64,000 nucleotides of DNA, from contig CAZSUC010000001.1 in NCBI GenBank assembly GCA_964610055.1, positions 588,977 to 652,976 of the forward strand, read 5' to 3'. Positions 28,314 through 48,053 of the stretch are shown here, piece after piece. The number at the start of each line of letters is the position of its first letter. The first letter of the stretch is position 1. A program made the position numbers and the translations under genes. Source of the DNA: an uncultured Candidatus Saccharibacteria bacterium. Its GTDB lineage: Bacteria; Patescibacteriota; Andersenbacteria; UBA10190. The notes under the pieces are model-generated. The model saw only the letters and a list, made by a program, of their open reading frames with translations. It was not told the origin of the DNA and did not search any database.

Positions 28314-29662
28314 TAAATTCTATATTCTGCTTCGCTTAAATCTTCTTCGCCTACTATCTTAATCGCGCTATTTCCATGGCTTAAATACAAAAGCCGATCA
28401 TAAATATGCACATTTTCCGTACCGATCGCACCCAGCCCCGACACACATTGAATTAAAGGTTGTACATCAACTAAATCAGCCGCACTATTTGTCCTATTTC
28501 CTAATGAAAAATCATTTAAACTCCCTCCTGTTTTCAGGAATGGCCATATCACTAAACCTAAAAACACCACCGCTCCCGCACCACTGACAGTTATTGTTCC
28601 TAATTGAATCCAACGCACACTATATCTCTTTAAAAACTTTCCGTACCCAATGCCGGACAATACCCATATTCCCAAACTTACTAAAACAAAATAACGCAAT
28701 GTAAACCGATCAATCATATACAGTAAAGCGCTTAAATGTATCACTAACCCAATCAGCCACGCCCCAGCCTGCACTCGTTTTCGCGGCAATACAATAGCTA
28801 AAATTACTCCCACACATAATAATCCTAAAATAGTTATTTGCACTCCGCCCGGAAATTCCTGCCCCGTATAACGCGCTATAAACGATGACCCGCTCACAGC
28901 CACGCGCAAAATACCGGGTAAATCATGCCAACGCTGACCCATTAAATCGGCCACAGCCGTCGGATCACCTTGGTCATCCGTAAACAACTGCAACATAATC
29001 ATCTGTGTCCCAAAGGCAGCCCAAAAACCCACCGCTGCCGGCCACCATTCCCACCATGTCCGTAAAATTCGCCGAATCATATGTTTATTACCTTTTCTCT
29101 GTACTGCCTCAACCGTTTCTTTGATTAACCACACTAGTGCAATCGCTAATACCGTCGGCGCAAATAAAATATGCGTATGCATCCCTAAACCAGCCACCAC
29201 CCCCGCTAACAAATGCTTATAACGCCATTTCTTTTCTAACACCCACAATAACAAAAATGACCAGAAGGGAATTAAAGTAATCCCCCAACCAATTCGTTGA
29301 TAAGTTAAATAAATAGGCGAAAATCCCATCATCACTGCTCCTATTAAACCAACTGATCGCCCGAATGTTTTTTCCAACACAGCAATCGCCAATAAATAGG
29401 TTATTATCGACACTATCAGCATCGGCACCCGTAACGCCAAGGCTGTATATCCAAACACTTTAATAAAAGGCACACGCACGTAATCCATTAAAGGCCCAAT
29501 ATATGACCTTTCTCCTTTGAAGACCAACTCTTCTGCTTGAGTCAGCTCCCATGCATTTTCTCCCTCCGACCCCTCATCTCCCATTAACCCCGGCACACTT
29601 CCCAGCCAGGCCATATTAATCACTATAAACAGTCCTAATAAACCTAATTTCACTTTATCCAT
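28232..29662 (-). CDS. GT-C glycosyltransferase, family 39/83-like (ArnT/PMT-type)
   Basis: 476 aa. GDEGSEGENAWEL...IGPLMDYVRVPFIKVFGYTALALRVPM... matches the ArnT/PMT first-loop DE motif and helix pattern. Confidence 0.75.
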   Translation of the reverse strand: MDKVKLGLLGLFIVINMAWLGSVPGLMGDEGSEGENAWELTQAEELVFKGERSYIGPLMDYVRVPFIKVFGYTALALRVPMLIVSIITYLLAIAVLEKTFGRSVGLIGAVMMGFSPIYLTYQRIGWGITLIPFWSFLLLWVLEKKWRYKHLLAGVVAGLGMHTHILFAPTVLAIALVWLIKETVEAVQRKGNKHMIRRILRTWWEWWPAAVGFWAAFGTQMIMLQLFTDDQGDPTAVADLMGQRWHDLPGILRVAVSGSSFIARYTGQEFPGGVQITILGLLCVGVILAIVLPRKRVQAGAWLIGLVIHLSALLYMIDRFTLRYFVLVSLGIWVLSGIGYGKFLKRYSVRWIQLGTITVSGAGAVVFLGLVIWPFLKTGGSLNDFSLGNRTNSAADLVDVQPLIQCVSGLGAIGTENVHIYDRLLYLSHGNSAIKIVGEEDLSEAEYRIYYRDGKTESLSGIEACPELKYFVVEKI

Positions 29663-29664
29663 AG

Positions 29665-31620: not shown

Positions 31621-31659
31621 GCATTACTTATAGTACAATAATTCTAATTAATAAACCGA

Positions 31660-33930
31660 ATGTCGCCTTTTTCTCGTCCTTACTTTGCCTTATTAATTGT
31701 TAGCGCTTTAGCGCTCTGGCCGCTTTTTTTCGGCCGTTTTTACGGTATTGGCGATACACGCTCCGTTTATATTCCCATCGAGCATTTTTTTGCTGAGCAA
31801 CAACGGCACTTTAATTTACCGGCCTGGATGCCAGACACTGCTTGGGGTTTTCCGGTAATTGCTTCTGCTCAAATCGGTTTCTTTTATCCGCCTCTTTTAC
31901 TGACACGCTTCTTACCTATCTTTATTTACCTGCCGTTATTACTCTGGCTCCACATCTTTTTTCTCGGTATCGGCGCCTATCGTTTGGCCCGAACCCTAAA
32001 TATTAGTCAAAACGGCGCCCTGATTACCGCCCTATCCATTGCTCTTAACGCCTTTCTTTGGCAGCACTTAACCCACCTAAACATTATTTTTGCTTTGGCT
32101 TGGTTTCCTTGGCAATTACTCGCCGCTCATTACTTAGCCAGATCACATCGACCTAATTTCAAACAATTTGCCGGCTTAGTTTTCACTTTAGGCCTCCCGT
32201 TTTTAGCTGGCCAACTTCAAGTTCCTTTTCTCACCGCTCTTTTCTCTACCATTTATTATTTCGTTTCTTTACCCAAAAAGCCTTTCCCCTCTCGACATCT
32301 CCTCATTTTCCTCGGCGCAACTCTTTTGACTATTACTCTCACCGCCGTCCAAACATTTCCCACCCTAGAGCTCACATTCCTTTCCAGCCGTGGATCAACT
32401 AATGAATTTTCTTTGGAACGAGCTAATCAACATAGTTTTCCTATTTATCATCTACCCACCTTACTTTTTCCACGCTTTTTCGGCTCAGATAATACTTATT
32501 GGGGGAAACGTATTGAAATAGAATACGGCTTTTTCTTCGGCGTCATTCCGCTATGCCTCAGCTTTATTGCTATATTCAACAAATCACGTCGTTACCGTTT
32601 CTGGATTATCAGCGGCTTCATAGCTTTTCTGTTAAGCCTGGGCGAATTTTCTCCTTTTCGCTTAGTTGGCTTAGAGCCATCGCTCTGGTACTTTTCTGCT
32701 CCCGCCCGTTGGCTATTCTTCACCGTTTTTTCTGGATCAATCCTTGCTGGTTTTGGTTATGATCTTTTGCCTAATATCTCACCTCGTTACCTGCGCATCC
32801 TTAAATCAACTATTGTAACCATATTAAGCTGCGTCATTTTATATAATCTCGTCCTTTGGCTCTTGCCGGAAAATTTTGCTTCTTATGTTCTAACCTGGTT
32901 GCAATCACAAAATCTCACCGGCGCTCGCGATTCAGCCTATTATTTAGATAAGATTAATTCCTTACTCTCCTCTGCAAAACACACGGGCTTATCACTTGCT
33001 TCGCCATATACTTACATCACTCTCATTCCTTTGCTCGCCATTCCATGGCTCTTCCAAAAACATCACTCGTGGCTTATTCCTCTCACAGCTATTGAACTCA
33101 TCTTAATTGCCAGTACGGCCAATCCAAGTGTTACTTGGTCCAATATTCTAACTCCTCCTGCCAGCATCTCTGCCCTTCCTCAAAGTGTTACCAGCGATCA
33201 CGCTCGCATCATTTCAATCTCAGCTCCCGGCGATACAGGGCTTTGGCTAACTAACCCTGAAACCCGTGCCGATACCGCTCGTCGCGAACAATATCGTCAA
33301 CAACTCGAACCACTCACTCACTCACTTTTTAATCTTGCCGGTTCTCAATGGCCCGCCTCGCTGGATCTACAATCTCAGGCACATACTTTAGAAAATTTAC
33401 TCGAATCACGCCAAGATCAACTATACATTGATTCTGACAAAGCCGCTGCTCTCAATATCGGTGCTGCCTTAATTGCCAACGAAGCTCCCCACACTGTTTC
33501 AGAAGTACTACCCCAAAATATTGCACCGAATATCTTCTTGTATTCCTTCTCTCCTCAACCTCGCGCTTCTCTTTTAACTGAAGACCAAACCGAATTAGCG
33601 CTTCCATACGACAACACTAATCCTAATCACCAAACTTATACCCTCTCATCATCTACTCCCGCGACCCTTATTATTCGCGACACCTGGTACCCTGGTTGGC
33701 AAGCCACACTTGACGACCAACCCGTTAACATTGATACCTATAACAATATTTTCCGTTCTGTTTCGGTTCCCTCCGGATCACATACCGTTTCTTTCACCTA
33801 TCATCCTACTTGGCTTTATTACGGTCTAGCTATTTCGCTTACCACTCTTGGTTTTCTAATATTTGTGCTGATGTACAATAATCATATCTACACTGTTCCC
33901 TTTATTTTAAGGAGGAAGACCATTGGCTGA
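31660..33930 (+). CDS. YfhO-family polytopic membrane protein
   Basis: 756 aa. Contains NLPAWMPDTAWGFPVIASAQIGFFYP, and the C-terminal RDTWYPGWQATLDDQPVNIDTYNNIFRSVSVPSGSHTVSFTYHP plus a terminal TM. Confidence 0.75.
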   Translation: MSPFSRPYFALLIVSALALWPLFFGRFYGIGDTRSVYIPIEHFFAEQQRHFNLPAWMPDTAWGFPVIASAQIGFFYPPLLLTRFLPIFIYLPLLLWLHIFFLGIGAYRLARTLNISQNGALITALSIALNAFLWQHLTHLNIIFALAWFPWQLLAAHYLARSHRPNFKQFAGLVFTLGLPFLAGQLQVPFLTALFSTIYYFVSLPKKPFPSRHLLIFLGATLLTITLTAVQTFPTLELTFLSSRGSTNEFSLERANQHSFPIYHLPTLLFPRFFGSDNTYWGKRIEIEYGFFFGVIPLCLSFIAIFNKSRRYRFWIISGFIAFLLSLGEFSPFRLVGLEPSLWYFSAPARWLFFTVFSGSILAGFGYDLLPNISPRYLRILKSTIVTILSCVILYNLVLWLLPENFASYVLTWLQSQNLTGARDSAYYLDKINSLLSSAKHTGLSLASPYTYITLIPLLAIPWLFQKHHSWLIPLTAIELILIASTANPSVTWSNILTPPASISALPQSVTSDHARIISISAPGDTGLWLTNPETRADTARREQYRQQLEPLTHSLFNLAGSQWPASLDLQSQAHTLENLLESRQDQLYIDSDKAAALNIGAALIANEAPHTVSEVLPQNIAPNIFLYSFSPQPRASLLTEDQTELALPYDNTNPNHQTYTLSSSTPATLIIRDTWYPGWQATLDDQPVNIDTYNNIFRSVSVPSGSHTVSFTYHPTWLYYGLAISLTTLGFLIFVLMYNNHIYTVPFILRRKTIG

Positions 33931-34814: not shown

Positions 34815-34841
34815 CCACCAAGCCAGTCTTGGTGGATTTTT
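34815..34841 (+). terminator. Rho-independent terminator of the small-gene unit
   Basis: CCACCAAG-ccagt-CTTGGTGG forms a perfect 8-bp stem followed by ATTTTT. The U-tract overlaps the stop codon of the convergent ATPase gene. Confidence 0.65.
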
Positions 34842-36135
34842 ATATCCACATCCTATCAATCAATTCTCGCGGTTGTCCGTACCGTAATCGATTTACCGCC
34901 TGCACCTCTACCTTCCCTATAGCCGTTTCTAAACTTAACGGCGGCAAACTCTGCCCCCGAAATGCTCGGTACGTAATTCCGGCCTGAGTCAGACGGATAA
35001 AAAAGTGATATGGCGGCAAGTCCTGAAAATCCTCCACTTGAATCGCCTGCCCCTTATCCCACGATGTTTGCTGAAAGGCCGGCAGTAACGCTTCCGCATC
35101 ATTTGCCCCTATTTGAAAAGCCACCAACGTTCCTACATTACCCAACACCGCCTCTCGCACCTCGTCAGTTAATTGCGCCACATACTGATTAGTTAAATGC
35201 ACAGCTAATCCGTACTTGCGCGCTTCCGACAACATAGAAATGAATGTTTCCGTCATCACATTCTGAAATTCATCGACGTATAAATAAAAGGGAACCCTGT
35301 CTTCGACCGGCATATCGGCACGACGCATTATCGCCGCCTGTAACTTTGCCATCAAAATCAATCCCAACATATATGAATTTAATTCTCCCAGTCTTCCTTT
35401 AGACAAATTCACAATCAAAATTTTGCCATGATTCACAATCTCATCAAACGCCAAAGCATTGCGCTTCTGACCGATGATATTGCGCATCGTCGTATTTGTC
35501 ATAAAGCGACCAAACTTGGAAGTAAAATAATTCAACATTTCCGAGCGATGAAACTGCGCGGTTTTTGCCATCTGCTCTTCCCAAAATGACAATACGACCC
35601 GATCTCGCACATGGCGACGTTTTTCTTGCTCAAATTTTTCATCCGTAAATAAGCGCGGAATCTCAATCAAAGTTCCGCCCGCCGGATCGGCCATAACTGT
35701 TAAAGCCGCATTTCGCATCCAGTGTTCAAACTGCGGCCCAATAATTCCCTGCTGATCCGGATCAAATAGTTTATAAAATATCTGAATCGCCTCGGCCACC
35801 AAAAAATCTTTCTCACTTTCAGTTTTACCATCCAATAAGTTCAAGCCTAATGGCCATTCCGTATCAGCCGGATCAAACAACACTACATCATCCAACCGCT
35901 CCGCCGGAATATTATTTAACAGCCAATCGCACACTTCTCCATGCGGATCAACAAAACAACACCCCGCCCCAGCCTGAATATCCTGCAAAATCATATTTTG
36001 ATACAAAGTCGATTTACCCGTCCCAGTTTTTCCAATGCAATACATATGTCGCATCCGATCTTGCGGTGCTGTTTGAATACTGCGCATTTGATTGCGAAAT
36101 TCAGCGTGTCCAATTACATTCATTCTTTCTGTCAT
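34840..36135 (-). CDS. Soluble FtsK/HerA-superfamily P-loop ATPase, TraD/VirD4 (type IV coupling protein)-like
   Basis: Walker A CIGKTGTGKST, then FVDPHGE, Walker B FYLYVDEFQ, and the C-terminal LSEARKYGLAVHLTNQYVAQL...LGNVGTLVAFQIGANDAE (TraG/TraD C-terminal-type pattern). No TM segment is visible. Confidence 0.8.
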   Translation of the reverse strand: MTERMNVIGHAEFRNQMRSIQTAPQDRMRHMYCIGKTGTGKSTLYQNMILQDIQAGAGCCFVDPHGEVCDWLLNNIPAERLDDVVLFDPADTEWPLGLNLLDGKTESEKDFLVAEAIQIFYKLFDPDQQGIIGPQFEHWMRNAALTVMADPAGGTLIEIPRLFTDEKFEQEKRRHVRDRVVLSFWEEQMAKTAQFHRSEMLNYFTSKFGRFMTNTTMRNIIGQKRNALAFDEIVNHGKILIVNLSKGRLGELNSYMLGLILMAKLQAAIMRRADMPVEDRVPFYLYVDEFQNVMTETFISMLSEARKYGLAVHLTNQYVAQLTDEVREAVLGNVGTLVAFQIGANDAEALLPAFQQTSWDKGQAIQVEDFQDLPPYHFFIRLTQAGITYRAFRGQSLPPLSLETAIGKVEVQAVNRLRYGQPRELIDRMWI

Positions 36136-36136
36136 T

Positions 36137-36361
36137 TCAGCTCCTTTCTACCATTGTAAAATAATTAGCCGGAATAGGACGTGGCGGCAATCCCGGTCGC
36201 ATCACCATAACTACTTTTGTTTCCACCTTAGCTTCAGACGTAATCTTCACTGTCCGCCGCCATGCTTCCAAACGGTTTTTAATTACTCTCTGCGTTTCTA
36301 TTGGCAGCCAATGCTTAATTCGCTCATACTCCTCTTCTACTTTGTGTAATTTTGCTATCAT
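36137..36361 (-). CDS. Small hypothetical protein (74 aa)
   Basis: ATG 36361 overlaps the upstream TGA (ATGA), and its own stop lies 1 nt before the next ATG. This translationally coupled position is the main evidence. Confidence 0.55.
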   Translation of the reverse strand: MIAKLHKVEEEYERIKHWLPIETQRVIKNRLEAWRRTVKITSEAKVETKVVMVMRPGLPPRPIPANYFTMVERS

Positions 36362-38043
36362 ATTGTTTCTTTCATCATCCATTGCCCGATCGCTGATTCC
36401 GCCGTTTGTTCTAGCCATCTTTTCAACGGCCTAACCCCGAACCGCGGATCATATTTCTGCTCAATGTGTTGTCTAATCATATTATCCGACATCGACAAAT
36501 TAACTCCCAAATGACTGAATCGTCTTTCAATCTTCTGTAGTTCCAACCGTCCGATCATCACTAAAGTTTCCGGCGCAAACGGAGCAAAAACAGCAATTCC
36601 CTCAAACCGATTCAAAAACTCCCACCGAAAATATTTAGTCAGCAATGGCAACATCCGCCGACTTAACCATTCCGCACTTGTTACATCCTCTCCTGCCTGC
36701 CAATCAGTCACAATTTCACTTATCCCTATATTCGAAGTCGCCACAATCACGGTTTTCCGGAAATCGATTGTTCGTCCTTGCCCATCAGTTAAACGCCCAT
36801 CTTCTAACACTTGTAAAAAAATATCAAACACCGCTTTATCGGCTTTTTCAATTTCATCCAATAAAACTAACGAATATGGCCTTTGTTGTACTGGATTAGT
36901 TAATTGACCACCACTCTCATACCCAACATAACCAGGTGGCGCACCAATTAAACGCTGTACATTATGTGCTTCCTGGTATTCCGACATATCAACCCTTACC
37001 ATCGCCTTATCTCCGCCGTACAATTCTCGCGCCAACACACGCGCCACCTCTGTTTTACCGACTCCGGATGGACCTAAAAACAAAAATGAACCCAATGGTC
37101 GATCCGGATTCTTCAATCCTAACCATGACCTTTCGATTACTTTTGTTACCATATTTACTGCTTGATCCTGACCAATGACCTGCGCTGCTAATCTACCCCC
37201 CAACCCAGCAATGGCCTTCCTATCTCGCGTTTGAACTTTTATTGTCGACATCCCCAACTTATCACTCAAAACCCGCTGCGCATCTTCATATGCCACAATC
37301 CTCCGCCCCTGCACCACCGCCTCCGCTCCAATGTCATCTAAAAACCTAATTGCCCGTTCGGGCATCGCTAAGCTCGCTGGTAACTGACTCGCTAAATCAT
37401 AGATTGCTTCCGGCATATTAGCAGCCATCTTAATATTATGTTTGAATCCAAAATAAGCGGCGCGATCTCTTAAAATTTCCACCACATCTGCTTTTCCTAA
37501 TTCATCTAATCGAATCCATTCGAACTCACGTACATACTTCGGATAATTTTCCTTAAATTTTATTTCTCCTTCTAACGACAACGCTAACACTAATCTATGC
37601 CTCTGTTTCTGCCAAAACTTACTCCACACATCCGCCATCTGCGCTGTATTCATCACATACTCCAACAGCACCTCTGCCTTATCAATCACCAAAATACAGG
37701 CTGGTAGCGCTCCTAGTGCTTCTCCGTAAAGCCGTAATTTCGCGGCCGGATCATGCGCTCGATTCATTTTTTCCTGCCACCATTTCAAATCTAACTCCAG
37801 AATTGGTGTTTGAATTATCCCCTGCAAACTGCCTTTGACCGCCGCCTGCGCCAACCCTCTCAACAACGCTGTTTTGCCTACTCCTTCTCCTCCTGTCACC
37901 ACCACGTTATTCATTTGATCACGCTCAAATACTCGCGCCATCAAACTCAACTCTCGCTCCCGACCTCTCACTGGCCACTGACGAACTTGAGTAGCCTCTC
38001 GCACTAAATCAATTATATGTATTGTTTCTAATCGCTCAGGCAT
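36358..38043 (-). CDS. Clp/Hsp100-family double-AAA+ ATPase, short form (no N-domain, no M-domain, degenerate NBD1)
   Basis: NBD2 is intact: GPSGVGKT, LLDEIEKA, GAPPGYVGYESGGQLT, VIVATSN, FLNRFEGIAVFAPF and GVRPLKRWL. NBD1 keeps Walker A GGEGVGKT, but Walker B reads ILVIDKAE (E replaced by K) and the KYRGEFE-type pore loop is absent. 561 aa. Confidence 0.85.
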   Translation of the reverse strand: MPERLETIHIIDLVREATQVRQWPVRGRERELSLMARVFERDQMNNVVVTGGEGVGKTALLRGLAQAAVKGSLQGIIQTPILELDLKWWQEKMNRAHDPAAKLRLYGEALGALPACILVIDKAEVLLEYVMNTAQMADVWSKFWQKQRHRLVLALSLEGEIKFKENYPKYVREFEWIRLDELGKADVVEILRDRAAYFGFKHNIKMAANMPEAIYDLASQLPASLAMPERAIRFLDDIGAEAVVQGRRIVAYEDAQRVLSDKLGMSTIKVQTRDRKAIAGLGGRLAAQVIGQDQAVNMVTKVIERSWLGLKNPDRPLGSFLFLGPSGVGKTEVARVLARELYGGDKAMVRVDMSEYQEAHNVQRLIGAPPGYVGYESGGQLTNPVQQRPYSLVLLDEIEKADKAVFDIFLQVLEDGRLTDGQGRTIDFRKTVIVATSNIGISEIVTDWQAGEDVTSAEWLSRRMLPLLTKYFRWEFLNRFEGIAVFAPFAPETLVMIGRLELQKIERRFSHLGVNLSMSDNMIRQHIEQKYDPRFGVRPLKRWLEQTAESAIGQWMMKETI

Positions 38044-38044
38044 A

Positions 38045-39895
38045 TTAGACCATCATTGTCCGATTAACAGTTGTGCCACCCGTAATCTGACTGGATCTTA
38101 TCGTTCCTTCCTCTTCATCTTCTGTTCCTATAATTATCCCGCCACGATGACGCGCTTCTGCCGCTAACTCAATCTCTGTCCCTCTTTGCTTAATCTGACC
38201 AACATAATTATCTAAATCTACTCGCCAACCCGGCTTCTCTCTTTCATTTCTCCAATTTTCTCTTTCCGCCTCTGCTCTCCATTCATATCCAACCGGACCA
38301 TCTGTCACTTGCTCTAAACTATCCGGCTTCGTTTTCGCCTCATAAAAACGATACCTAACTGCATCCCCATCTCGCTCCACTACCGTTACATCCAACACTT
38401 CGCCTTTTACCGTACGCTCTCCCGAAAAATACTGCTGTTCTCTGTTTACTGCGCCTCTAATCACTTTTTCTAGCTCTCCTCGCTCTTCCACCGGCCACAA
38501 ATCCATCACACTCTTTTCTATTTGCTCCGGCATCAACGTTAAAGCGACTTTCTCTTCCATATCTAACTCAACATCAATACCCTGAATTTCCTCTCTTCTT
38601 ACCTCCGCCTTATAAACCGTTTCTACCTTCGGGTACTCTTTCTTTTCCCCAACCTTCACATCTACATTCACATCTACATCTATATTCTCTACATTATTTT
38701 CTCTTCCCTTTTCTAAAATCACTGGTCTTTCAGCTATTTTTTTCTCCTCCGTAATCGCAACTTCAACTCTTTCCTTAACTCTCGTAACGCTTTGCTCCGA
38801 TAAAACCTGGTCGGCTTTCACATCCACCGCTTTCGGCACTAGTCCCGGAAACATCTCCTGTAAACTCACTTCTACTTTCCTAGATTCATTTTTCTGTCCT
38901 AAATCAGTTTGCACTACTTCTGGCATTGAAGCAGCTTCTCTTTCCCCCGCATTTACATACTTTATCTCTATGGCTTCACTCGGCGTATTTTCTATCACCC
39001 GTACCTCTCCTGTCTTCGTCTCACCAGGTTCCTCTTGCTTTAACAACTCCTTACGCAACTCCTCATGATTCCAAACTTCTTCTAGCTGCGGCTCTTCAAC
39101 CTGCCTCTGCTCCACAAACACATCAGAATTAATCGTATTTTCAGATGCTTGTTCTTCTAGTTCTTCTCTTTGATCATCTACTTCCACTCTTTCACCAACC
39201 ATATCCATCGCATTTATATAATTTATCTCAATGCCTTCACTCGACGTATTTTCTATCACTTGCACCTCTTCTTCTCTCACCTCATTGCTTTGCTGTTCTT
39301 GTACCACTACCACTTCTTCTCTAACAAGCTCTTCACTTATCTCATCAACCATACTTTCTGCTTGCGCTTCAATCTCTACTTGTTCTACTTGCGCTTCATC
39401 TTCACTGCCTATCCACTCGTCGCTTTCTTCATTCAAATTAACCGGTACTTCACGAAATTGCACTAACATATATTCTGTTTCTCGTTCTCCCCACTCATTC
39501 ACTTCGTCTTTGACCACCACTGCACAACTTTTAAACTCATGATAAGCCACATATCCACTTTTCGCGCCACATAATGTTTCAAATTGCCCTTCTTCATCCA
39601 TTCCTTCACTACTAATCTCCTGATCATTCCAAAATACCCGTCTCTTACCAGTCGCGTCTTCCCTCACCACGCATTTATATGTCTGCGCCATTTCTAGTCT
39701 TTGCCCTGTCCCTTGCTCTAAATCAACTCGAGCTGATTCTAATCTCATTGTCATTCGCTCATGTTCTTCTGTCTGGCGTTCCTTTTCCGATGCTAATTCT
39801 TCTGCTTGAACCTGTACCTCAGATTCAATCTCTTCAACATCCAACATTTCCTCTAGGCTTTCTTCGGTTTCCGCTATGTTTATACTTTCAGGCAT
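38045..39895 (-). CDS. Hyper-acidic repeat-containing protein (616 aa), function unknown
   Basis: ATG 39895 lies 8 nt after AGGAG. The long central region is Glu/Val/Gln-rich with an internal duplication (EVQVIENTSSEGIEINYINA and EVRVIENTPSEAIEIKYVNA). There is no signal peptide or TM segment. Its stop lies 1 nt before the Clp-like gene's start. Confidence 0.75.
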   Translation of the reverse strand: MPESINIAETEESLEEMLDVEEIESEVQVQAEELASEKERQTEEHERMTMRLESARVDLEQGTGQRLEMAQTYKCVVREDATGKRRVFWNDQEISSEGMDEEGQFETLCGAKSGYVAYHEFKSCAVVVKDEVNEWGERETEYMLVQFREVPVNLNEESDEWIGSEDEAQVEQVEIEAQAESMVDEISEELVREEVVVVQEQQSNEVREEEVQVIENTSSEGIEINYINAMDMVGERVEVDDQREELEEQASENTINSDVFVEQRQVEEPQLEEVWNHEELRKELLKQEEPGETKTGEVRVIENTPSEAIEIKYVNAGEREAASMPEVVQTDLGQKNESRKVEVSLQEMFPGLVPKAVDVKADQVLSEQSVTRVKERVEVAITEEKKIAERPVILEKGRENNVENIDVDVNVDVKVGEKKEYPKVETVYKAEVRREEIQGIDVELDMEEKVALTLMPEQIEKSVMDLWPVEERGELEKVIRGAVNREQQYFSGERTVKGEVLDVTVVERDGDAVRYRFYEAKTKPDSLEQVTDGPVGYEWRAEAERENWRNEREKPGWRVDLDNYVGQIKQRGTEIELAAEARHRGGIIIGTEDEEEGTIRSSQITGGTTVNRTMMV

Positions 39896-40097
39896 ACAAA
39901 AAACTCCTACATGCACAACACGCATGAGGAGAAATCACTAAAAATCCTTATGCGCGTAGGCTCAACAAAGGATTCAGGCACTCTGACTTATGGCTTTTAG
40001 CCCATCACAGTTGCGGCATACCAGCGCCGGATTCTCACCGGCTTTCCCTGATCACACTTTTCAGTGCGCGTGGTGCGAACCACGCCAATCCTCTTTA
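39896..40097 (-). promoter_or_regulatory. Cobalamin riboswitch-like 5' leader (aptamer ~39966-40096, expression platform 39896-39965)
   Basis: The minus-strand RNA reads AUCAGGGAAAGCCGGUGAGAAUCCGGCGCUGGUAUGCCGCAACUGUGA (40005-40050) plus the B12-box-like GCCAUAAGUCAGAGUGCCUG (39975-39994). These are closed by P1 AAGAGGAUU/AAUCCUUU. Downstream, hairpin 39904-39931 (CUCCUCAUGC-guguugu-GCAUGUAGGAG) sequesters the SD and is followed by U6 and then the ATG. Confidence 0.8.
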
Positions 40098-40167
40098 AAA
40101 ATTAATGTGCACTCTTAGCTTACCGCCGTTCCCTTGGCCCCACAATCAGTTTTTTGCACAGGCTCGT

Positions 40168-41676
40168 TTATTTAGCGTATATCCAAACATAAGGCACGTC
40201 GTGCACCTTTATAACCTCCACCGGCACGACATCTTTCATTGCCGCTAACGCCTGACTCGCCAAAGTGTCTTCTCCGCGACCACCCATGTTTCTATAGGTC
40301 ACAATATAATCAACATGTTCATTCTCCCGAGCCGCTAAACTAACTACCTCGCCCCTAAAATATGTTTGCAACACTTGCGGATACCAAGATGCAACCGTTA
40401 ATTGTTCCGCCTCTGTCTGCGCGTTTAACCAAGCTGCCGCCGCTTCTAACCCCTCACCCCATCCTTGCTGACTTAGTGGCCGTATCTCCGGTAATAAAGA
40501 ATTATTATACGCAATCAAATAACTATCTCGCCAATTAGCCCATGTCCAAACGGATAGAAATACCACCACGCCTATCGCAAACCCTTGCCATGTTTTTTTT
40601 CGTCTCGCCAAAGTTATCTTTGCCGTTACCCATCCCGTCAACACCGGCCCCACAACCAACGCTGGCAATGCATACCGATCCGCTTTTTTCGCCGCCCAAG
40701 TCATAATAACCAAAAAGCCAATCGCATAAACATACATCCAAACCATTTCTTGGCTGTGCTTTTGTTTCCGCACTATTACTATTAATGCTGCTACCCAGCC
40801 AAATAACACCAGCGGCGTACTCCGACCCAATGCGGTTCGCATATAAAAAGTCGCGGGCTGAATCGCATCCGTCCCAGCATCTAACTCAACATGCTCCCAA
40901 GTAACTGCTGTCCCAATATCACGCGTAAATGAACGACTCATATCTGCTTTCACCCACGCCGCTGGCCATGCCACCCAAAACACCAGTCCTGCTACTCCAA
41001 TCACCGTGCCCAAAGTTCGCAACATTATATTTATTTTTCCTGACTTGCCCCATAACTTCCACACCACCCACCCCATCATCATTGGCACTAGCCATAACGC
41101 TAAAATTAATTTCGTTGCCGCTGCTAGCCCAAACCAAATACCTGCTCCAACTAGCCAACGCCATTTTTGCTTTTGCCACCAGACCATCCACGCCAACCAA
41201 CTATTCAACATGAACAATGCCAATAATCCATCCAAATGCACAATCTGCGTCGCTCCTGCTAAATACGGATCTAACGCCAAAAATATTCCAGCTAACCAAC
41301 CGACTGGCGCCCCTCCTAAGATCGTCAACATAAATGCCGCTATCCCAATCATCCCAGCCGCCGCTAAACTCACGGGCAGAACAGCTGCCTTACGAAAATG
41401 TTGTAAATTACCTGGCTGAACTGTTACTCCTAAACGTGTTTCTTGCACCACTTCCCCTGCCCCTGCTAGCCACATTAAAGGCGCCCCCGGATGAGTTGTC
41501 ACAAATGTCGACGCTGGATCCATGGCTCGAATTGCCTGCCAATATTGAGCGCTGCGTAACATCCACGCCTCTTCATCCACTGTCATATATTGCCCTAACC
41601 CCGGCCACCGCGCCAATAACGCTAAAACTCCGATACTAACTGGTATTATTCCTGCTTTCGCTTTAATCCAATTCAC
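40168..41676 (-). CDS. GT-C glycosyltransferase (ArnT/PMT-type), paralog of 29665-31620
   Basis: 502 aa and polytopic, with extended similarity to the first ~500 aa of the 651-aa protein. Confidence 0.75.
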   Translation of the reverse strand: MNWIKAKAGIIPVSIGVLALLARWPGLGQYMTVDEEAWMLRSAQYWQAIRAMDPASTFVTTHPGAPLMWLAGAGEVVQETRLGVTVQPGNLQHFRKAAVLPVSLAAAGMIGIAAFMLTILGGAPVGWLAGIFLALDPYLAGATQIVHLDGLLALFMLNSWLAWMVWWQKQKWRWLVGAGIWFGLAAATKLILALWLVPMMMGWVVWKLWGKSGKINIMLRTLGTVIGVAGLVFWVAWPAAWVKADMSRSFTRDIGTAVTWEHVELDAGTDAIQPATFYMRTALGRSTPLVLFGWVAALIVIVRKQKHSQEMVWMYVYAIGFLVIMTWAAKKADRYALPALVVGPVLTGWVTAKITLARRKKTWQGFAIGVVVFLSVWTWANWRDSYLIAYNNSLLPEIRPLSQQGWGEGLEAAAAWLNAQTEAEQLTVASWYPQVLQTYFRGEVVSLAARENEHVDYIVTYRNMGGRGEDTLASQALAAMKDVVPVEVIKVHDVPYVWIYAK

Positions 41677-44324
41677 ACTGCACTCGCTTTAATTCGATGC
41701 ATGAACACCAGCGTGTTTGATCCATTCTCTACTTCATGAACTGTTTCAAAATCAGTTTCCATCCCTGCCTCAATCTCGGAATACTCCATCAAAAATGAAA
41801 ACCCAGTTTGTTTTTCTAGTAACACCCATTCCGCCTCACGCCAAGCCTGAACCATCTCTTCGGCGGAAGGCAAAAACACATTCAGTCTTTCTGGGTTCTT
41901 TCGTGTAAATTCATAGGCATACCAACGCGGATGAGCAATATCTAACGACACATGATGACCAGATAAATATGGTACTGCCGCTGCTCCCGTAAAAATCGGT
42001 TTATCTGATGGAATATTTTCCTGCGCCCATTCTGCCGCCTCACGCAAAGAATCTTGCTGAAAAGTTCCAGTGTGCTCAAACGTTGCCGTAATATAATTTG
42101 ATAAATAAACTGCCCACATAATCACTAGTATACTTATCACCGCCAATGGGCGGCGTACCATTTCTCCTTTACCTACCACAAACAAACGTCTCCACAACCA
42201 ATAAGCTCCTACCGCCGCCAATATCGTCAGAGGTGGCAAAAATTCAATAATGTAATTCGCATGAAACTTAATCCAATTCCAGTAAAAGAAGGCTAAGCCT
42301 AAAAACCACGCCAACAAGACCAATGCACTCGCTAGCATCTGTCCCGCCGATTGTTCTCCCGGTGCCACTTTAATTGACTGTTTAATTTCAAATTGAGCTT
42401 GTGCTCCTGAAACTACATTCATCGGTATATTCACCCCTGCATCCGGCTGCGTACTAGCTTTAACTTGAGATGACGCCACCCATCCTTCTTCATTACTACG
42501 CGGCCATACAGTTGCAATCAGTAAAACACTCATCATACCCCACCATAACCCTCGCATTCCACCCATTGATAAAAACGGTTCTCCTTCATATTCAAAGAAA
42601 AATCCATGCGCCCACCACCACCCTAACCATGCCAATAACCAGCCTATTTTTGGCAGCACATGATCGACAATTACAATAGTGATCTTGTCCGACTTATCAC
42701 TGACCCACTTTCGCGCTATCACCCGTAACCATCTTTCCCACATCATTCCAACTCCCACCAGCGCCAAAATTATTAGCGGCAATGATTCTCGGAAAAACGG
42801 CGTCATGCCTCGAATTGAATATTCGCGCACTTGTTCCGCCTCTGCCGGATCAATTGCGGTTTGCCCATCTTCCGCTGAATTAAAACCACTCACTTCCCAC
42901 AAGCCTTGTGTACCATACTGACCATATGCCCACCCTAACAACGCCGAAATTACTAACAAAAATCCCGCCCCAATCAAAACTAAACGCTGGAATTTATTGC
43001 GCCATCCTCGCGACTCAATCCAGACTAATAATAACGGCACAATCCCTAACGCTAGAATACTCTTACGCGAAGCAACACCTAACCCCAATAAAAGACCACC
43101 TATTAACAAGCGATATCCTAATTTCCGGCCTCCCAGATGACCCCGCAACGCCGTCCATATCACCGCGATTCCACTAATCCCAAATAACATCGCCACTGGC
43201 TGAGTGTGCACATACACTGTACTCACTGCTGCCGATCCCAACATCCCCCACATTACCGCTGCCAATAATCCTGTTCGTTTGTTATGTGCTTCTCGTCCAA
43301 TAAAATACATCGGAATGATTGTCAGCACTCCAGCCATAATTGATCCCATGCGTCCCGCTAAAATTGTCGGTCCCATTATTAACTGCCATAATGCCACCCA
43401 TAACAACATAATCGGCGCCTTCACATAACCATCCCCTCCGGCTAAGTGTCCGCGCAATAATGTTTGCGCATCATACAAATAATTACCCTCATCATTAGTC
43501 ACCGGCATTTCTACGGCATATCTGATACGCCATAAAGTCGCCAATATCATGACTAAAGCAATAATCGTTCCCACTACTACTCGATTTAATTCTTTTTCCT
43601 GAGCTTGCCCGCTCAAAACTACTATTGCTCCTACAACCACCGCAGCCGCCAACGCTAAAATCATCCAGTTATAATACGTTCCTTCCCGTGTATCCCAAGT
43701 TCCCACTACCCACCGCGCCTGATTCCCAACAGTGGTAATAATAGCTTCTCGCAACGTCACATCATGATGAGCTATAAACGCCACATCCACCGTTGGCTTT
43801 CCTGACCGCGCAATTACCTCCGCCCCTATCTGCCCTTCGCTGTTCCGCACTAAAAATGCTGACCCTAAGTGATAAGGATCTTGCGTGTTCAAATCAACAG
43901 TCACTGCATTTCCCACCACTGACGCCGGCGAAGTAATCGCGAAGAAATAAGTTTTTCCTTTGCTATTCGCAATCGGATCAAACTCAAACCGATAAAATTG
44001 ATTATCTCCTAGCTCCTGCGGCTCAGCTATGACAGTCCGCAAATTTTCATCACTTGTATAGGACTCTCGTAAATAGAAATAAACCGGCGCCGTGTTGTCC
44101 CTCCCCGAATACGTTGCAAACATTACGCTTACTGCCGACAAGTCATCTGCATCCGCCACAAAAGTCTGTCCTACTAACGCATCGCCCGTTAATTCACCTG
44201 CGTTAGTTGTATATTCCTTAATTTCCGTGTCATTTTGCTTAACCTTAATAAAATTCGCTGACACTGCTGCAGCCGCTAAAACAACTACCACAATTAAAAA
44301 CCAAATTTTTGTTGATGATCGCAT
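41673..44324 (-). CDS. Large GT-C glycosyltransferase with N-terminal anchored soluble module
   Basis: 883 aa. A signal-anchor is followed by a module (GELTGDALVGQTF...YRFEFDPI...FFAITSP...GNAVTV), then many TM helices with an ArnT/PMT-like pattern (NDEGNYLYDAQ). Confidence 0.75.
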   Translation of the reverse strand: MRSSTKIWFLIVVVVLAAAAVSANFIKVKQNDTEIKEYTTNAGELTGDALVGQTFVADADDLSAVSVMFATYSGRDNTAPVYFYLRESYTSDENLRTVIAEPQELGDNQFYRFEFDPIANSKGKTYFFAITSPASVVGNAVTVDLNTQDPYHLGSAFLVRNSEGQIGAEVIARSGKPTVDVAFIAHHDVTLREAIITTVGNQARWVVGTWDTREGTYYNWMILALAAAVVVGAIVVLSGQAQEKELNRVVVGTIIALVMILATLWRIRYAVEMPVTNDEGNYLYDAQTLLRGHLAGGDGYVKAPIMLLWVALWQLIMGPTILAGRMGSIMAGVLTIIPMYFIGREAHNKRTGLLAAVMWGMLGSAAVSTVYVHTQPVAMLFGISGIAVIWTALRGHLGGRKLGYRLLIGGLLLGLGVASRKSILALGIVPLLLVWIESRGWRNKFQRLVLIGAGFLLVISALLGWAYGQYGTQGLWEVSGFNSAEDGQTAIDPAEAEQVREYSIRGMTPFFRESLPLIILALVGVGMMWERWLRVIARKWVSDKSDKITIVIVDHVLPKIGWLLAWLGWWWAHGFFFEYEGEPFLSMGGMRGLWWGMMSVLLIATVWPRSNEEGWVASSQVKASTQPDAGVNIPMNVVSGAQAQFEIKQSIKVAPGEQSAGQMLASALVLLAWFLGLAFFYWNWIKFHANYIIEFLPPLTILAAVGAYWLWRRLFVVGKGEMVRRPLAVISILVIMWAVYLSNYITATFEHTGTFQQDSLREAAEWAQENIPSDKPIFTGAAAVPYLSGHHVSLDIAHPRWYAYEFTRKNPERLNVFLPSAEEMVQAWREAEWVLLEKQTGFSFLMEYSEIEAGMETDFETVHEVENGSNTLVFMHRIKASAV

Positions 44325-44333
44325 TAACGCCTC

Positions 44334-45353
44334 TTACCAATAATACTCTTTATTCTTGCGATAAAACTCGACCATTTCACGAATACCGTCCTTAAAATCT
44401 ATCTGTGGTTTCCAGGCACATGCCATTTCCAATTTATGCGTATCAGCAATATAATCCCCTGTCTCATTTTTTTCATAATCTTCCGGCCAGGGTACGTATT
44501 TCTTCGTCCCCGCCCCCGCCGCTGCGATAATCATATCTACCATCTCTCCAAATTTAATCCGCTCATGACTCCCCACATTATACGCTTCTCCCGCCTGTCC
44601 TTTGACGATTAAGCGCATCATCCCATTTACAATATCATCAATATAAATATAATCTCGCTCCTGTTCTCCATCTCCAAAAATCTGAATTTCTTGCCCCTCT
44701 AAAGCCTGCCTCACAAACCAACCAACTATTGAATACTTACCATGTTTCATCTGCTGTCGTGGACCATATGGATTTGGGATCCGCATAGACACGCCTTGCA
44801 CTCCAAAAGTATGCGCATAATATCGATAATACTTTTCTCCTAATAGCTTATGAATTCCATACAAAGACAAAGGATCAGTCGGATGCGTCTCTTTAACCGG
44901 TAATTCTAAAATTTTTCCATACACTAATCGAGATGACGAAAAAAGAATCCGCGCTTCTGGTGCAAAATTTTTGACTGCTTCCAAAATCACTAAATTGCCT
45001 CGGCCGTTAAAATCCAAATCCATAAACGGCTTATCCTTTGATTCCAAATAACTCACTTGTCCCGCTAAATGAAACACAAACTGTTTGCCTTGCACTAATT
45101 TATTCATTAGTTCCTCATCCCGAATATCACCATCTACCAGCTCTAACTTCTCTTCTATATCCGCTACGTTAAACCGATTACCTCCATACGGCGGCAATAA
45201 CGCATCCAAAATTGTTACTTTTGCTCCAGCTGCTGTTAGCGCTCTTGCCAAATTACTGCCAATAAATCCTAGGCCACCAGTAATCAACACCTGTGCTCCA
45301 GTTAGGGCTGTTTTTATATCTTCCGGCAAATCGCTTGTTAATTGCTTATCCAT
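44334..45353 (-). CDS. NAD-dependent sugar-nucleotide epimerase/dehydratase (extended SDR)
   Basis: Carries VLITGGLGFIGSNLARAL and the YGIHK (YxxxK) motif. 339 aa. Confidence 0.85.
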   Translation of the reverse strand: MDKQLTSDLPEDIKTALTGAQVLITGGLGFIGSNLARALTAAGAKVTILDALLPPYGGNRFNVADIEEKLELVDGDIRDEELMNKLVQGKQFVFHLAGQVSYLESKDKPFMDLDFNGRGNLVILEAVKNFAPEARILFSSSRLVYGKILELPVKETHPTDPLSLYGIHKLLGEKYYRYYAHTFGVQGVSMRIPNPYGPRQQMKHGKYSIVGWFVRQALEGQEIQIFGDGEQERDYIYIDDIVNGMMRLIVKGQAGEAYNVGSHERIKFGEMVDMIIAAAGAGTKKYVPWPEDYEKNETGDYIADTHKLEMACAWKPQIDFKDGIREMVEFYRKNKEYYW

Positions 45354-45402
45354 TGCCTATCACGGTAGCAGAAAAATTCTGTGTCTGCATCTCTAATTCT
45401 TT

Positions 45403-45441
45403 AACAAAACCCCTTAAAGAAAGACGCATTTCCTTAAGGGG
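45403..45441 (-). terminator. Rho-independent terminator
   Basis: The minus strand forms CCCCUUAA(g)GAAA-ugcguc-UUUC(u)UUAAGGGG followed by UUUUGUU. It lies 12 nt after the stop of the 149-aa ORF. Confidence 0.6.
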
Positions 45442-45452
45442 CGAATAAACAC

Positions 45453-45902
45453 TCAGGATTGCAAGCGAATCAAGAGAGCGTAAGATTCCCTCAGCCGCGG
45501 AACACAGTGATTCATTGCCAAACCACGTGTCGTGCAAGACTTATACAGCCACGATCCGCGGGTAAGACCAAACTTATCGCGAGTATCCAGTTGCACAATC
45601 TTGGCATATGGCAACAACAAACCACGCAGAAAAAAATGAGCGCCCACAGCCAAAAGATCGCACTGATCCGCTAACCAAACACGCTTCTTCTCAACCCAAT
45701 CCATCGCTTGCATATCAGTCGTTTCAACTCCAAAGCAAACGAGTTCCAAAGGCGCTAAACCAGCCGCATGGGGCGCACACCAATCTTGAGGTATAGTCAC
45801 CCCGGTCACCATGTCATACTTAGCACTATCAACGCGTTCCTGTAAAGATACACTCCGGGGCGGCAACCAGACATCACGCAGTTTCGTTATAACCACTGTC
45901 AT
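45453..45902 (-). CDS. Orphan hypothetical protein (149 aa)
   Basis: ATG 45902 is preceded by CAGGAGAA. No recognisable motif. It sits in a patch where the window-wide C>G bias is lost. Confidence 0.5.
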   Translation of the reverse strand: MTVVITKLRDVWLPPRSVSLQERVDSAKYDMVTGVTIPQDWCAPHAAGLAPLELVCFGVETTDMQAMDWVEKKRVWLADQCDLLAVGAHFFLRGLLLPYAKIVQLDTRDKFGLTRGSWLYKSCTTRGLAMNHCVPRLRESYALLIRLQS

Positions 45903-45969
45903 CTCTCTTCTCCTGTATGAGTGAAACTTTGTCTCAGTGAAAGGTACGATCAATTACACTCTCACGATT

Positions 45970-47109
45970 TTACCCCTGTTTATATTCCCGATACAACCGG
46001 TCGTATTCACTCATGATTGCACTCCAATCGTATTGCAAAGCCATCTCTCGACTTGCTTTCCCCATTCGTTCTCGTAAATCTTGATCATCAATCAATCGTA
46101 CCAATCTCTCGGCAATCTGTTCTTCATTTTCTCCCACTAAAAATCCATTTTCGCCCTCTTTAACGATTTCGTTATTTCCTCCCACATCACTCGCCACCAC
46201 CGGCAATCCGCACCCCATTGCTTCTAAAATTACTGATGGCATACCTTCTGATAATGACGTCAACACAAACACGTCAGCATACTGATAAGATTTTTCTAAT
46301 TTGTCGTAAGGCACAGTCCCCACATACTTAATCACATCTGACACGCCTAATGAAGTCGCCAACTGGTCCAGTTCACTACGATAAGTTCCTGTCCCCACTA
46401 CTTCAACTTCAAACGGATACTGCGCTCGCTCCCTCACTAACGGCAATGCCTTCACTACCCGCTGAAACCCTTTCCGCGGAATCAAACGACCAATAAACAA
46501 TAGTCTGACTTTGGGGTTAGCTGACCGTTCAATCGGAGAAAACCTTTTCGTATCCACCCCATTTGGAATCAACTTAAACTCCGCTTTCGGATCAACTTGT
46601 TGACCTAAGCGAACCAATTCTTCTGAACAAACAGTTCTAAACTCCGCTCGTTGCCAAATTAATTTTAATAGGGGAGTAATCACCGGATACACCCGTTTGT
46701 ATCGCGATGGATTCGCCCCCGGAATATCCGATCCGCCAAAATAAACAGCGTAGGGGAGACCTCGCACTAATGAAATCACCCACGCCACCCATCCCGCCGG
46801 CACCGCAAAATACGCCTGAATAAAGTCCACTTTATGCCTTAAGGTGTACCACCACACGTATCCCAATGCTGATATTCCAAATATGACTAACTCCCACATC
46901 GCCGCATAGTCAGCAAATCGCCGCACTGCCGGAATCCTAATCACTTCAGCTCCATCAATCACTTCCCTGCGCGGCAATCCCTTATATCCCGATGTCACTA
47001 AAGTCACTTCATGCCCAGCCGCCACTAAATATTTAATCGCATATTTTGTAACCGTTGATCCTCCCCCGCCAATCGGCGGAAATTCATTGTTAATTAGCAG
47101 CAGCTTCAT
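45970..47109 (-). CDS. Glycosyltransferase family 4
   Basis: MKLLLINNEFPPIGGGGS at the N-terminus and LTSLSEGMPSVILEAMGCGLPVVASDVGGNNEIVKEGENGFLV (E-x7-E). Confidence 0.85.
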   Translation of the reverse strand: MKLLLINNEFPPIGGGGSTVTKYAIKYLVAAGHEVTLVTSGYKGLPRREVIDGAEVIRIPAVRRFADYAAMWELVIFGISALGYVWWYTLRHKVDFIQAYFAVPAGWVAWVISLVRGLPYAVYFGGSDIPGANPSRYKRVYPVITPLLKLIWQRAEFRTVCSEELVRLGQQVDPKAEFKLIPNGVDTKRFSPIERSANPKVRLLFIGRLIPRKGFQRVVKALPLVRERAQYPFEVEVVGTGTYRSELDQLATSLGVSDVIKYVGTVPYDKLEKSYQYADVFVLTSLSEGMPSVILEAMGCGLPVVASDVGGNNEIVKEGENGFLVGENEEQIAERLVRLIDDQDLRERMGKASREMALQYDWSAIMSEYDRLYREYKQG

Positions 47110-47114
47110 TGCAA

Positions 47115-48053
47115 TTATTCAAATCCAACTGTTCTCCGGATTGTATAGGGCTTTTTTTCCGTGTAATAAGTTTTTGCCACCTGATCAGCCAATACTCCGG
47201 ACAATAAAAATTGAAAACCTAATAAAACTAATAAAACAGCCAGCAGGGGAGAAGTTCGATTCGCCAACCCAATAATCCGAAATAACCACAGTGCGCCTAG
47301 CGTACCACCCAAGACAAATCCAGTTCCGATAAATCCCGCCCCGATCGCTCCAAAAAAGTGCATCGGCCTAGCTGAATATTGAATCCAAAATTTCACCACA
47401 AATAAATCCAAAAACCCTTTTAATTTCTTTTTGATTGAATATTTCGTCTTACCGTATTTACGAGGATGATGCCTTACCACCATCTCTCCCACTCGAAATC
47501 CTTTCCATGACAACAACGCTGTAATATACCGATGCATTTCTCCGTATAATTCCAGTCCTTCCAAAGCTTCTTTGCGGTACACTTTCAAACTGCACCCTTG
47601 ATCGTGAATTTTTTCGCCTGTTACTCTCCGTCGCACCCAATTCCCAATCTTACTCCCCAGCATCAATAGTTGCTTATCATGCCGCTCTTTTCGCCATCCG
47701 GATACGACATCTAATTTATCCTCCTCTAACTTCTTAATCATCGCCGGAATATCTTCCGGATCATTCTGTAAATCAGCATCTAACACAATCACGTATTTCC
47801 CTTGCGCTTTATCAAACCCAGCCGACCAAGCCGCTGTCTGTCCAAACTGTCGTCGGAATTCAATTAGCTTCACGCGCTTATCTTGTTCAGTCAGGCGCAC
47901 AACTCGTTTCAATGTCTCATCCGTGCTACCGTCATCAATAATAATCAATTCCCACTCTCCTGCCATTTCACCCACTACCCGCTTAACCGACTCATACAAA
48001 GGCAGGATTGAATCTTCTTCGTTATGTGCTGGGACAACAATTGAATATTGCAT
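47115..48053 (-). CDS. Polyprenyl-phosphate glycosyltransferase, GT2 (GtrB/ArnC/DPM1-like)
   Basis: YSIVVPAHNEEDSILPL...WELIIIDDGSTDET...VLDADLQNDPEDIP, plus two C-terminal TM helices. Confidence 0.85.
   Translation of the reverse strand: MQYSIVVPAHNEEDSILPLYESVKRVVGEMAGEWELIIIDDGSTDETLKRVVRLTEQDKRVKLIEFRRQFGQTAAWSAGFDKAQGKYVIVLDADLQNDPEDIPAMIKKLEEDKLDVVSGWRKERHDKQLLMLGSKIGNWVRRRVTGEKIHDQGCSLKVYRKEALEGLELYGEMHRYITALLSWKGFRVGEMVVRHHPRKYGKTKYSIKKKLKGFLDLFVVKFWIQYSARPMHFFGAIGAGFIGTGFVLGGTLGALWLFRIIGLANRTSPLLAVLLVLLGFQFLLSGVLADQVAKTYYTEKKPYTIRRTVGFE

Follow-up and report, generated by a model that had tools for sequence, protein, structure and literature searches.

We analysed a stretch of 64,000 nucleotides from an uncultured Candidatus Saccharibacteria bacterium (contig CAZSUC010000001.1, positions 588,977–652,976; called the window below, with position 1 as its first nucleotide). 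On its minus strand, which carries all features of the leader and the operon described here, a compact cobalamin-type aptamer is followed by an expression platform, by a start codon at 39895 and by four genes encoding a hyper-acidic protein, a Clp/Hsp100-like ATPase, a small protein and a VirD4/TraG-type ATPase. An initial annotation had read the leader as a cobalamin riboswitch in front of genes with no known connection to vitamin B12 (cobalamin). Comparison of the leader with its relatives leads us to suggest that it is probably a working OFF riboswitch for cobalamin which controls the four-gene operon and belongs to the compact type, in which P6 is short and the peripheral extension is lacking.

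Results

Architecture of the aptamer

The minus-strand RNA quoted in the initial annotation is present at the indicated site, and the Rfam family RF00174 matches positions 39957–40105 over its full model (1–189). The helix P1, which had been proposed to close the aptamer, is borne out by the sequence and by the minimum-free-energy fold: its 5′ strand AAAGAGGAUU (40087–40096) pairs with its 3′ strand AAUCCUUU (39967–39974) in 7–8 base pairs (bp) with A40092 bulged. Between P1 and P3 the fold contains the P2 hairpin (40068–40085) and a second small hairpin (40054–40067); this region (40054–40085) is variable, and relatives show one, two or no hairpin. The core (39974–40051), for which the pairing of each helix was recorded in 22 Patescibacteria-type leaders, comprises P3 (UCAGG/CCUGA, 40047–40051 with 39974–39978), P4 (GCCGG/CCGGC, 40026–40042) with the T-loop-like L4 GGUGAGAAUCC in the arrangement GCCGG-UGAGAAU-CCGGC, P5/L5 (40012–40023), the P6 base CUG/CAG with a short P6 hairpin (39991–40004), and a B12-box-like AAGUCAG (39983–39989). 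In the alignment the L5 loop GUAUGCCG (40014–40021), the partner of the loop L13, has an insertion of three nucleotides (nt) compared with most compact cobalamin aptamers. The minimum-free-energy fold of 39880–40110 reproduces P1, P2, P3, P4 and P6. The core motifs, that is the GGGAA junction, the GGUGNNANUCC loop, GCCG in L5 and ACUGU...AGUCAG, are all found in the window copy and are invariant across the 22 related leaders.

A covariance-model search had been named as a check of the riboswitch reading. The match to RF00174, found in E-value mode, covers the entire model with 27.4 bits and an E-value of 5.2e-5; about 59 model positions, those of the P6 extension, are deleted in the window copy, in line with the short P6 hairpin of the initial annotation. 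A default Rfam scan of the 64-kb window, which applies the gathering scores, returned no match, and the copy lies under every gathering score of the Rfam clan CL00101. Thus the check came out positive by E-value, and a significant hit is missing in the narrow sense only, the gathering threshold being a curation cut-off and not a structural feature. We also used custom covariance models, which gave the segment 39961–40061 82.8 and 70.3 bits. The model R2 was built from 15 related leaders, none of them that of the window or one of the six closest to it, and its 70.3 bits (E about 1e-21) are the sole match in the 64 kb. The model R1, into which the sub-lineage of the window was taken, found no match in 562 kb of unrelated loci.

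Conservation of the leader and of its linkage to the operon

Contigs were retrieved for eight homologues of the VirD4-like protein (58–69% identity), which together with the window make nine protein-anchored loci (window, L083, L084, L086, L087, L190, L191, L192 and L193). In each of the nine the four-gene cluster recurs behind a leader of 230–560 nt which contains the aptamer, and since these loci were selected without regard to RNA sequence, this estimate of the linkage is unbiased. The cluster consists in each case of a Pfam-less protein of 544–725 amino acids (aa), a Clp-like ATPase of about 550 aa, a protein of 65–110 aa and a VirD4-like ATPase. A DNA-pattern scan of metagenomes yielded nine further leaders preceding the cluster or its first gene, so that 18 operon leaders including the window are available. 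Ten of the 18 pass Rfam gathering scores (RF01482 with 53.5–64.8 bits, RF00174 with 32.2–47.3 bits and RF01689 with 37.9 bits). Contigs scanned with the Clp-like protein served as negative background: they were mostly housekeeping ClpC/ClpB loci, the four-gene cluster was not found among them except for a distant pair of a Clp-like and a 755-aa VirD4-like protein in L080, and none of them contained an aptamer.

Compensatory changes in homologous leaders had been proposed as a further check, and they were found. P3, P4 and P6 are paired in all 22 Patescibacteria-type leaders by means of differing sequences. P3 occurs as UCAGG/CCUGA, CCGGG/CCUGG, UUUGG/CCAAA and GUUGG/CCAAC, P4 as GCCGG, GUUGG, GUCGG, GCGGG and GCUGG with their complements, and the P6 sequences are mutually unrelated. 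The P6 base CUG/CAG, otherwise invariant, is changed to CGG/CCG in L190–L193, whose leaders were not selected by pattern. Covariation statistics were calculated on 81 aptamers in an alignment that was fitted to the model and is therefore somewhat biased towards the structure. In it 89.2% of the cells are paired versus 27–46% with slid partners, the covariation score is 0.515 versus at most 0.143 in the controls with none of 500 shuffles reaching the observed value, and 379 cells are altered on both sides versus 130 in the shuffles. RNAalifold on a MAFFT alignment recovered P4 and P6 and missed P3 because of the variable length of the junction; P3 was assessed from an anchored table and from the model-based alignment, which lean slightly to the structure.

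The L5–L13 kissing loop

In all 22 leaders a hairpin with the loop CG-N(1-2)-GCA follows 3′ of P1, and this loop is complementary to the invariant UGCCG of L5. In the window this is the P13 hairpin CCU-ACGCGCAUA-AGG (39946–39960) with a weak stem of 3 bp; its loop L13 CGCGCAUA (39949–39956) is complementary to UAUGC|CG of L5 with C39954 bulged. The P13 stems differ between leaders (CCUU/AAGG, UUUUCC/GGAAAA, CCUCUU/AAGAGG), and the RF01482 consensus has a similar 3′ hairpin. The kissing loop between L5 and L13 is the standard ligand-sensing link of the cobalamin riboswitch class.

The 3-nt insertion in L5 is common to the window, L083, L084, L086, L114, L163 and L164, and all of these leaders have a longer L13 motif GCAUA. 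The L13 of this sub-lineage reads CGYGCAUA, and with the L5 insertion up to seven pairs are possible. The matching of the L5 insertion by an L13 extension suggests that the kissing loop was preserved rather than the pocket rebuilt. In addition, L193 combines an L5 with UACCG and an L13 with CGAGUA, which is a compensatory change from G:C to A:U.

Expression platform

Directly in front of the first gene lies a hairpin (39898–39931 with its U-run) which qualifies as intrinsic terminator and as sequestor of the Shine–Dalgarno (SD) sequence. Its stem of 10 bp with one bulge (39922–39931 with 39904–39914) carries the SD sequence AGGAG (39904–39908) within the 3′ arm and is followed by six uridines (39898–39903) and by the ATG at 39895. 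An antiterminator (39918–39957) can form alternatively, in which 39945–39957 pairs with 39918–39930, the 5′ arm of the terminator. When the platform is folded alone, the antiterminator is the minimum-free-energy state with −17.6 kcal/mol, and the terminator has −13.7 kcal/mol (z −3.35). The antiterminator draws on the same bases of L13 and of the 3′ strand of P13 that would be engaged in the kissing loop and in P13.

The arrangement of hairpin, U-run and AUG is kept in nearly all relatives, with covariation, and the complementarity of the antiterminator covaries in L083, L084, L086, L114 and L087; the competing pairings found in relatives are GUGCAUAAGG with CCUUGCAC, AUAAGG with CCUUAU and GAGCAGG with CCUGCUC. 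Both the terminator/sequestor and the alternative pairing of an upstream segment with the 5′ arm of the hairpin, as initially annotated, are hence upheld. The segment GCGCAU can pair in this way, but it is located at 39950–39955 and not at 39952–39957. It is moreover part of the L13 loop on the P13 hairpin which kisses L5, a point that the initial annotation had missed.

In L087, L091, L124, L144, L165, L187, L191 and L192 the sequence TTGACA, followed after about 17 nt by a TAnAAT-like box, is found 40–70 nt upstream of the aptamer, which suggests that these leaders have their own promoters. The leader of the window (40097–40167) contains no match of the TTGACA/TAnAAT type.

Genes of the operon

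Gene 1 (38045–39895) encodes the 616-aa hyper-acidic protein, which evolves fast, is mostly predicted to be unstructured and has no detectable family. Aspartate and glutamate together make up 25% of its residues, its net charge is −83 and an internal repeat of 20 aa is identical in 15 of 20 positions; neither a transmembrane segment nor a signal peptide was found, and a single-sequence AlphaFold2 model was of very low confidence, with a pLDDT (predicted local distance difference test) of 37.9. A word-index protein search retrieved only the protein itself, both with the single sequence and with a profile of nine sequences of its positional counterparts, and an exhaustive phmmer search against 1.84 billion representatives gave two weak matches and no more. 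The positional counterparts in all relatives are acidic as well (15–25% aspartate plus glutamate) and barely alignable. Eleven of 17 such acidic first-gene proteins end in alanine and seven in Ala-Ala (for example YQMAA, KMAA, TLAA and KIAA); ends of this type were noted in L084, L087, L156, L163, L187, L190 and L193, and also in L086, L114, L143 and L157. The Ala-Ala ends resemble degrons of the ssrA type, and it is a Clp-like unfoldase for which the following gene codes. Unlike its Ala-ending counterparts, the protein of the window ends in RTMMV.

Gene 2 (36358–38043) encodes the Clp/Hsp100-like double AAA+ ATPase of 561 aa (AAA_2 with 7e-58, ClpB_D2-small). It has two Walker A motifs, a Walker B motif in D2 only, and, being too short for them, neither an N-domain nor a middle domain. 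Gene 3 (36137–36418) encodes a small protein of at most 93 aa without family; a gene for 65–110 aa is located at the same position in relatives. Gene 4 (34840–36135) encodes the soluble P-loop ATPase of 431 aa, which resembles the VirD4/TraG-type type IV coupling proteins (T4CPs). It matches TrwB_AAD_bind with 31.2 bits (cut-off 20.5) and TraG-D_C with 28.4 bits (cut-off 22), has the Walker A motif GKTGTGKS and is without transmembrane segment, the maximal 19-residue hydropathy being 1.35. Its homologues number more than 5000, and every named one belongs to the Patescibacteria (Parcubacteria, Portnoybacteria, Pacebacteria, Colwellbacteria, Doudnabacteria). Neither virB4 nor a relaxase gene is part of the cluster at any locus.

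The description of the first gene product as a hyper-acidic repeat protein, followed by genes for two ATPases, is thus correct, and so is the statement that the genes have no known B12 connection. PADLOC and NCBIfam searches with the operon proteins gave generic ATPase similarity only, without any defence-system or B12 family, and a reading of the operon as a defence system was rejected on this ground. An exact look-up of the window proteins found identical copies in the same genome only.

Surroundings and other operon architectures

In the window the operon lies within an extended series of genes for the glycosylation of the cell envelope (40168–48053 and 28232–33930), among them several glycosyltransferases of the PMT_2/YfhO type, an epimerase-like gene and GT4/GT2-like genes, as judged by eye from the translations; the neighbours in L191 are similar to these. 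Over the whole window (1–64000) the plus strand has a GC skew of about −0.3 in every 2-kb bin (−0.14 to −0.49) irrespective of the strand of the genes, which is an unusually strong asymmetry. The GC content is 0.39–0.48, and there are no tRNA genes in the 64 kb.

On three contigs (P0005; L083, 11281–12631; L086, 8281–9584) the end of the VirD4-like gene overlaps by 4 nt with the start of xseA/xseB, which encode exonuclease VII. From this overlap, co-transcription of xseA/xseB with the cluster under the riboswitch is probable in this sub-lineage. The place of xseA/xseB is taken by a gene for an ABC ATPase in L084 and L190. A different operon is found under the same aptamer in L113 (4500–8900) and L170 (aptamer 8575–8675, minus strand). 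It encodes a zinc-ribbon protein, a protein of 135–143 aa and a membrane-anchored VirD4/HerA-like ATPase of 786–788 aa, which is 44–49% identical to the product of gene 4 of the window. Therefore a T4CP-like ATPase is linked to B12 in two operon architectures.

The same type of aptamer elsewhere

The same type of aptamer was also found upstream of genes for BtuF-like/FecCD/ABC proteins (12 loci), TonB receptors (seven loci), NrdD (three loci) and transcobalamin-like DUF4430 proteins, and with the DNA-pattern scan compact cobalamin aptamers were met many times in classical contexts. Two leaders in front of DUF4430 genes (L144 and L091) hardly differ in type from leaders of the cluster, namely L143/L157 and L156. 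These gene contexts indirectly support a cobalamin as the ligand. The leaders of the relatives are split among three models of the clan, RF01482, RF01689 and RF00174, a split that favours neither methyl-/aquo-cobalamin nor adenosylcobalamin as the preferred form.

In at least 20 loci the first gene after a compact cobalamin aptamer encodes a protein from Pfam-less families of 330–600 aa with a Cys-rich, zinc-ribbon-like C-terminus (these include L089, L095, L099, L101, L102, L111, L113, L115, L121, L126, L131, L155, L161, L166, L170, L178, L181 and L185), and in L099 such a protein follows genes for DUF4430 and DUF6580 in the same operon. These proteins look like uncharacterised members of B12 regulons. 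In L185 (aptamer 3635–3727, minus strand) the genes after the aptamer encode an unknown protein and then a ribonucleotide reductase which carries a Cys-rich tail in addition to lgN and lgC domains. In L090 (aptamer 1416–1513) the order is an unknown protein, NrdR and then a ribonucleotide reductase with the same domains and tail. A Cys-rich tail is typical of class II ribonucleotide reductases, the B12-dependent type.

Discussion

Proposed mechanism

The core motifs, the match to the full Rfam model, the independent covariance model, the orthologous leaders above gathering scores and the strong covariation of P3, P4 and P6 all agree with the riboswitch reading of the initial annotation. On these comparisons the RNA of the window genuinely belongs to the cobalamin riboswitch clan, with a slight divergence. 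We infer the ligand and the direction of the switch as follows. The aptamer would be formed by P1–P6 (40096–39967). Upon binding of a corrinoid, L5 (UAUGCCG) would kiss L13 of the weak P13 (39960–39946) and trap the bases of L13 and of the 3′ strand of P13, so that the hairpin 39931–39904 could fold. Transcription would then stop at the six uridines, or AGGAG would be sequestered and translation from 39895 blocked, and the operon would be OFF. In the absence of the ligand, L13 and the 3′ strand of P13 would pair with the 5′ arm of the hairpin as antiterminator and the operon would be expressed. The OFF logic is suggested because the bases used by the antiterminator are those which the kissing loop would sequester. 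OFF logic of this kind is found in characterised members of the class, namely env8 and the btuB-type switches.

Alternative explanations

Several observations speak against a functional cobalamin-sensing OFF switch in front of this operon. The window copy with its 27.4 bits stays below the gathering score of RF00174 (31.5 bits), as seven other orthologous leaders stay below gathering scores, and a simple promoter/terminator scan found no sigma-70-like promoter in the window leader. The support for the kissing loop consists mostly of invariant bases, together with one compensatory case and one correlated insertion, and the L5 insertion adjoins the ligand pocket and could change the specificity. 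Concerning the genes, the four products are without recognised link to B12, membrane segment or cofactor motif. No B12-dependent enzyme or transporter was found within the 64-kb window, and tblastn searches of the window with ribonucleotide reductase, NrdD, BtuF-like, DUF4430 and zinc-ribbon proteins gave no match.

Some of these points would fit an RNA in which a fold derived from cobalamin riboswitches senses another ligand in this sub-lineage, be it a different form of corrinoid or some unrelated metabolite, which would explain the non-B12 regulon. The score under the gathering threshold, the insertion beside the pocket in seven leaders and a regulon without B12 logic are in favour of this view. 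We nevertheless consider it unlikely, as the core has kept the positions that are conserved in the class, orthologous leaders of the same operon without the insertion pass the Rfam gathering scores, the near-identical leaders L144 and L091 precede genes for transcobalamin-like DUF4430 proteins and the L5 insertion is balanced by the L13 extension. The low score, together with the promoter that was not found in the window leader, might also be taken as a sign that the resemblance is due to chance or that the leader is a relic, decaying or without function, in this genome. This we hold to be very improbable, and it is already contradicted by the conservation: an independent covariance model recognises the RNA with an E-value of 1e-21, all helices are intact, the seven members of the sub-lineage maintain the structure by compensatory changes and the expression platform is conserved. 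Finally, the RNA could bind B12 without being a termination OFF switch, acting instead as an ON switch or only on translation or RNA stability. A simple terminator scan did indeed miss the bulged hairpin, and a class II-like ribonucleotide reductase, for which an OFF logic is not obvious, is encoded in the operons that follow similar aptamers in L185 and L090. We give this explanation only a small chance, since the hairpin, the six uridines and the SD sequence abut the AUG in nearly all relatives and the antiterminator uses exactly those bases of L13 and of the 3′ strand of P13 that the kissing loop would sequester. On balance we prefer the cobalamin-sensing OFF riboswitch.

Comparison with known systems

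Compact cobalamin riboswitches are grouped in the clan CL00101 (RF01482, AdoCbl; RF01689, AdoCbl-II/variant) and include the env8-type Cbl-II class, which is known from crystal structures. The window RNA resembles them in the four-way junction of P3–P6, in the T-loop-like GGUGNNANUCC, in the ACUGU...AGUCAG box, in the short P6 without peripheral extension and in the L5–L13 kissing loop which couples ligand binding to the expression platform. It differs from them by the 3-nt L5 insertion with the matching longer L13, and by a P13 that is not itself the SD helix and would act on a separate terminator/sequestor by way of the antiterminator. With the classical RF00174 riboswitches, for example the leaders of Escherichia coli btuB and Bacillus subtilis yvrC, it shares the core, the B12 box and the proposed OFF logic, and RF00174 is its best Rfam match; on the contrary, the long P6 extension and the control of btuB, cob and cbi genes belong to the classical members and not to the window copy. 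Cobalamin riboswitches typically control genes of B12 synthesis or transport or B12-independent isozymes, which is typical of the class and not strictly defining. The regulon of the window lies outside these groups.

Gene 4 shares the P-loop NTPase domain, TrwB_AAD_bind and TraG-D_C with the VirD4/TraG T4CPs, whereas it is without the N-terminal membrane anchor and its cluster is without virB4 or relaxase. A 2025 survey counted 5,713 VirD4-type homologues in 2,918 genomes of Patescibacteria, of which 148 are near virB4, and its authors suggest that these homologues may be exapted for another role (PMC12102498). Gene 4 belongs to this very large family of orphan T4CP homologues, and a link to a Clp-like ATPase, an acidic protein or a B12 riboswitch is not mentioned in the survey (PMC12102498). 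The product of gene 2 aligns to residues 171–715 of ClpA and to D2 of ClpB and matches AAA_2 and ClpB_D2-small, yet in comparison with the Clp/Hsp100 proteins ClpA, ClpB and ClpV it is without N-domain and middle domain and its D1 is without canonical Walker B. No clear ClpP-docking loop was recognised; only LGL at residue 308 fits the loose pattern [ILV]G[FL]. As the protein scores far under the equivalog cut-offs of ClpA, ClpB and ClpV, it is by sequence a Clp-like protein outside the named subfamilies.

Meaning of the regulon

The RNA itself is an ordinary representative of a well-known class, and the novelty is the regulon. Our literature search found no paper linking cobalamin riboswitches to Patescibacteria, VirD4/TraG or ClpB, and it is this previously unreported regulon, conserved among the Patescibacteria, which is the interesting part. 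Annotation with Rfam gathering scores overlooks eight of the 18 operon leaders, which may explain why the link went unnoticed. As the operon would be switched on at low B12, we describe it as a B12-starvation-induced module. If this holds, the riboswitch names the physiological condition under which the genes are needed, and B12 limitation would be a testable clue to the function of the operon. There are weak leads to this function, namely the overlap with xseA/xseB, the T4CP relative in L113 and L170, the aptamers in front of NrdR and ribonucleotide reductase and the Ala-rich C-termini, none of which decides between scavenging, secretion and signalling.

With regard to the role of the operon, we tentatively raise the possibility that Patescibacteria use B12, which they are unable to make and have to obtain from hosts or neighbours, as a signal that switches on a dedicated cytoplasmic machine, made up of an acidic client protein that evolves fast and of two ATPases, the Clp-like unfoldase and the VirD4-like translocase. 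If true, a fourth kind of B12 regulon would join those for synthesis, transport and B12-independent isozymes. The machine might deliver an effector or DNA by way of the essential type IV apparatus, or it might scavenge DNA and deoxynucleotides when a B12-dependent ribonucleotide reductase stalls. A confirmed riboswitch would also provide a native ligand-controlled switch, useful in a group where a need for inducible expression tools has been voiced (PMC11665869), and the proposed machine would offer a first approach to the physiology of the orphan T4CP homologues, which are known from about 3,000 genomes of Patescibacteria.

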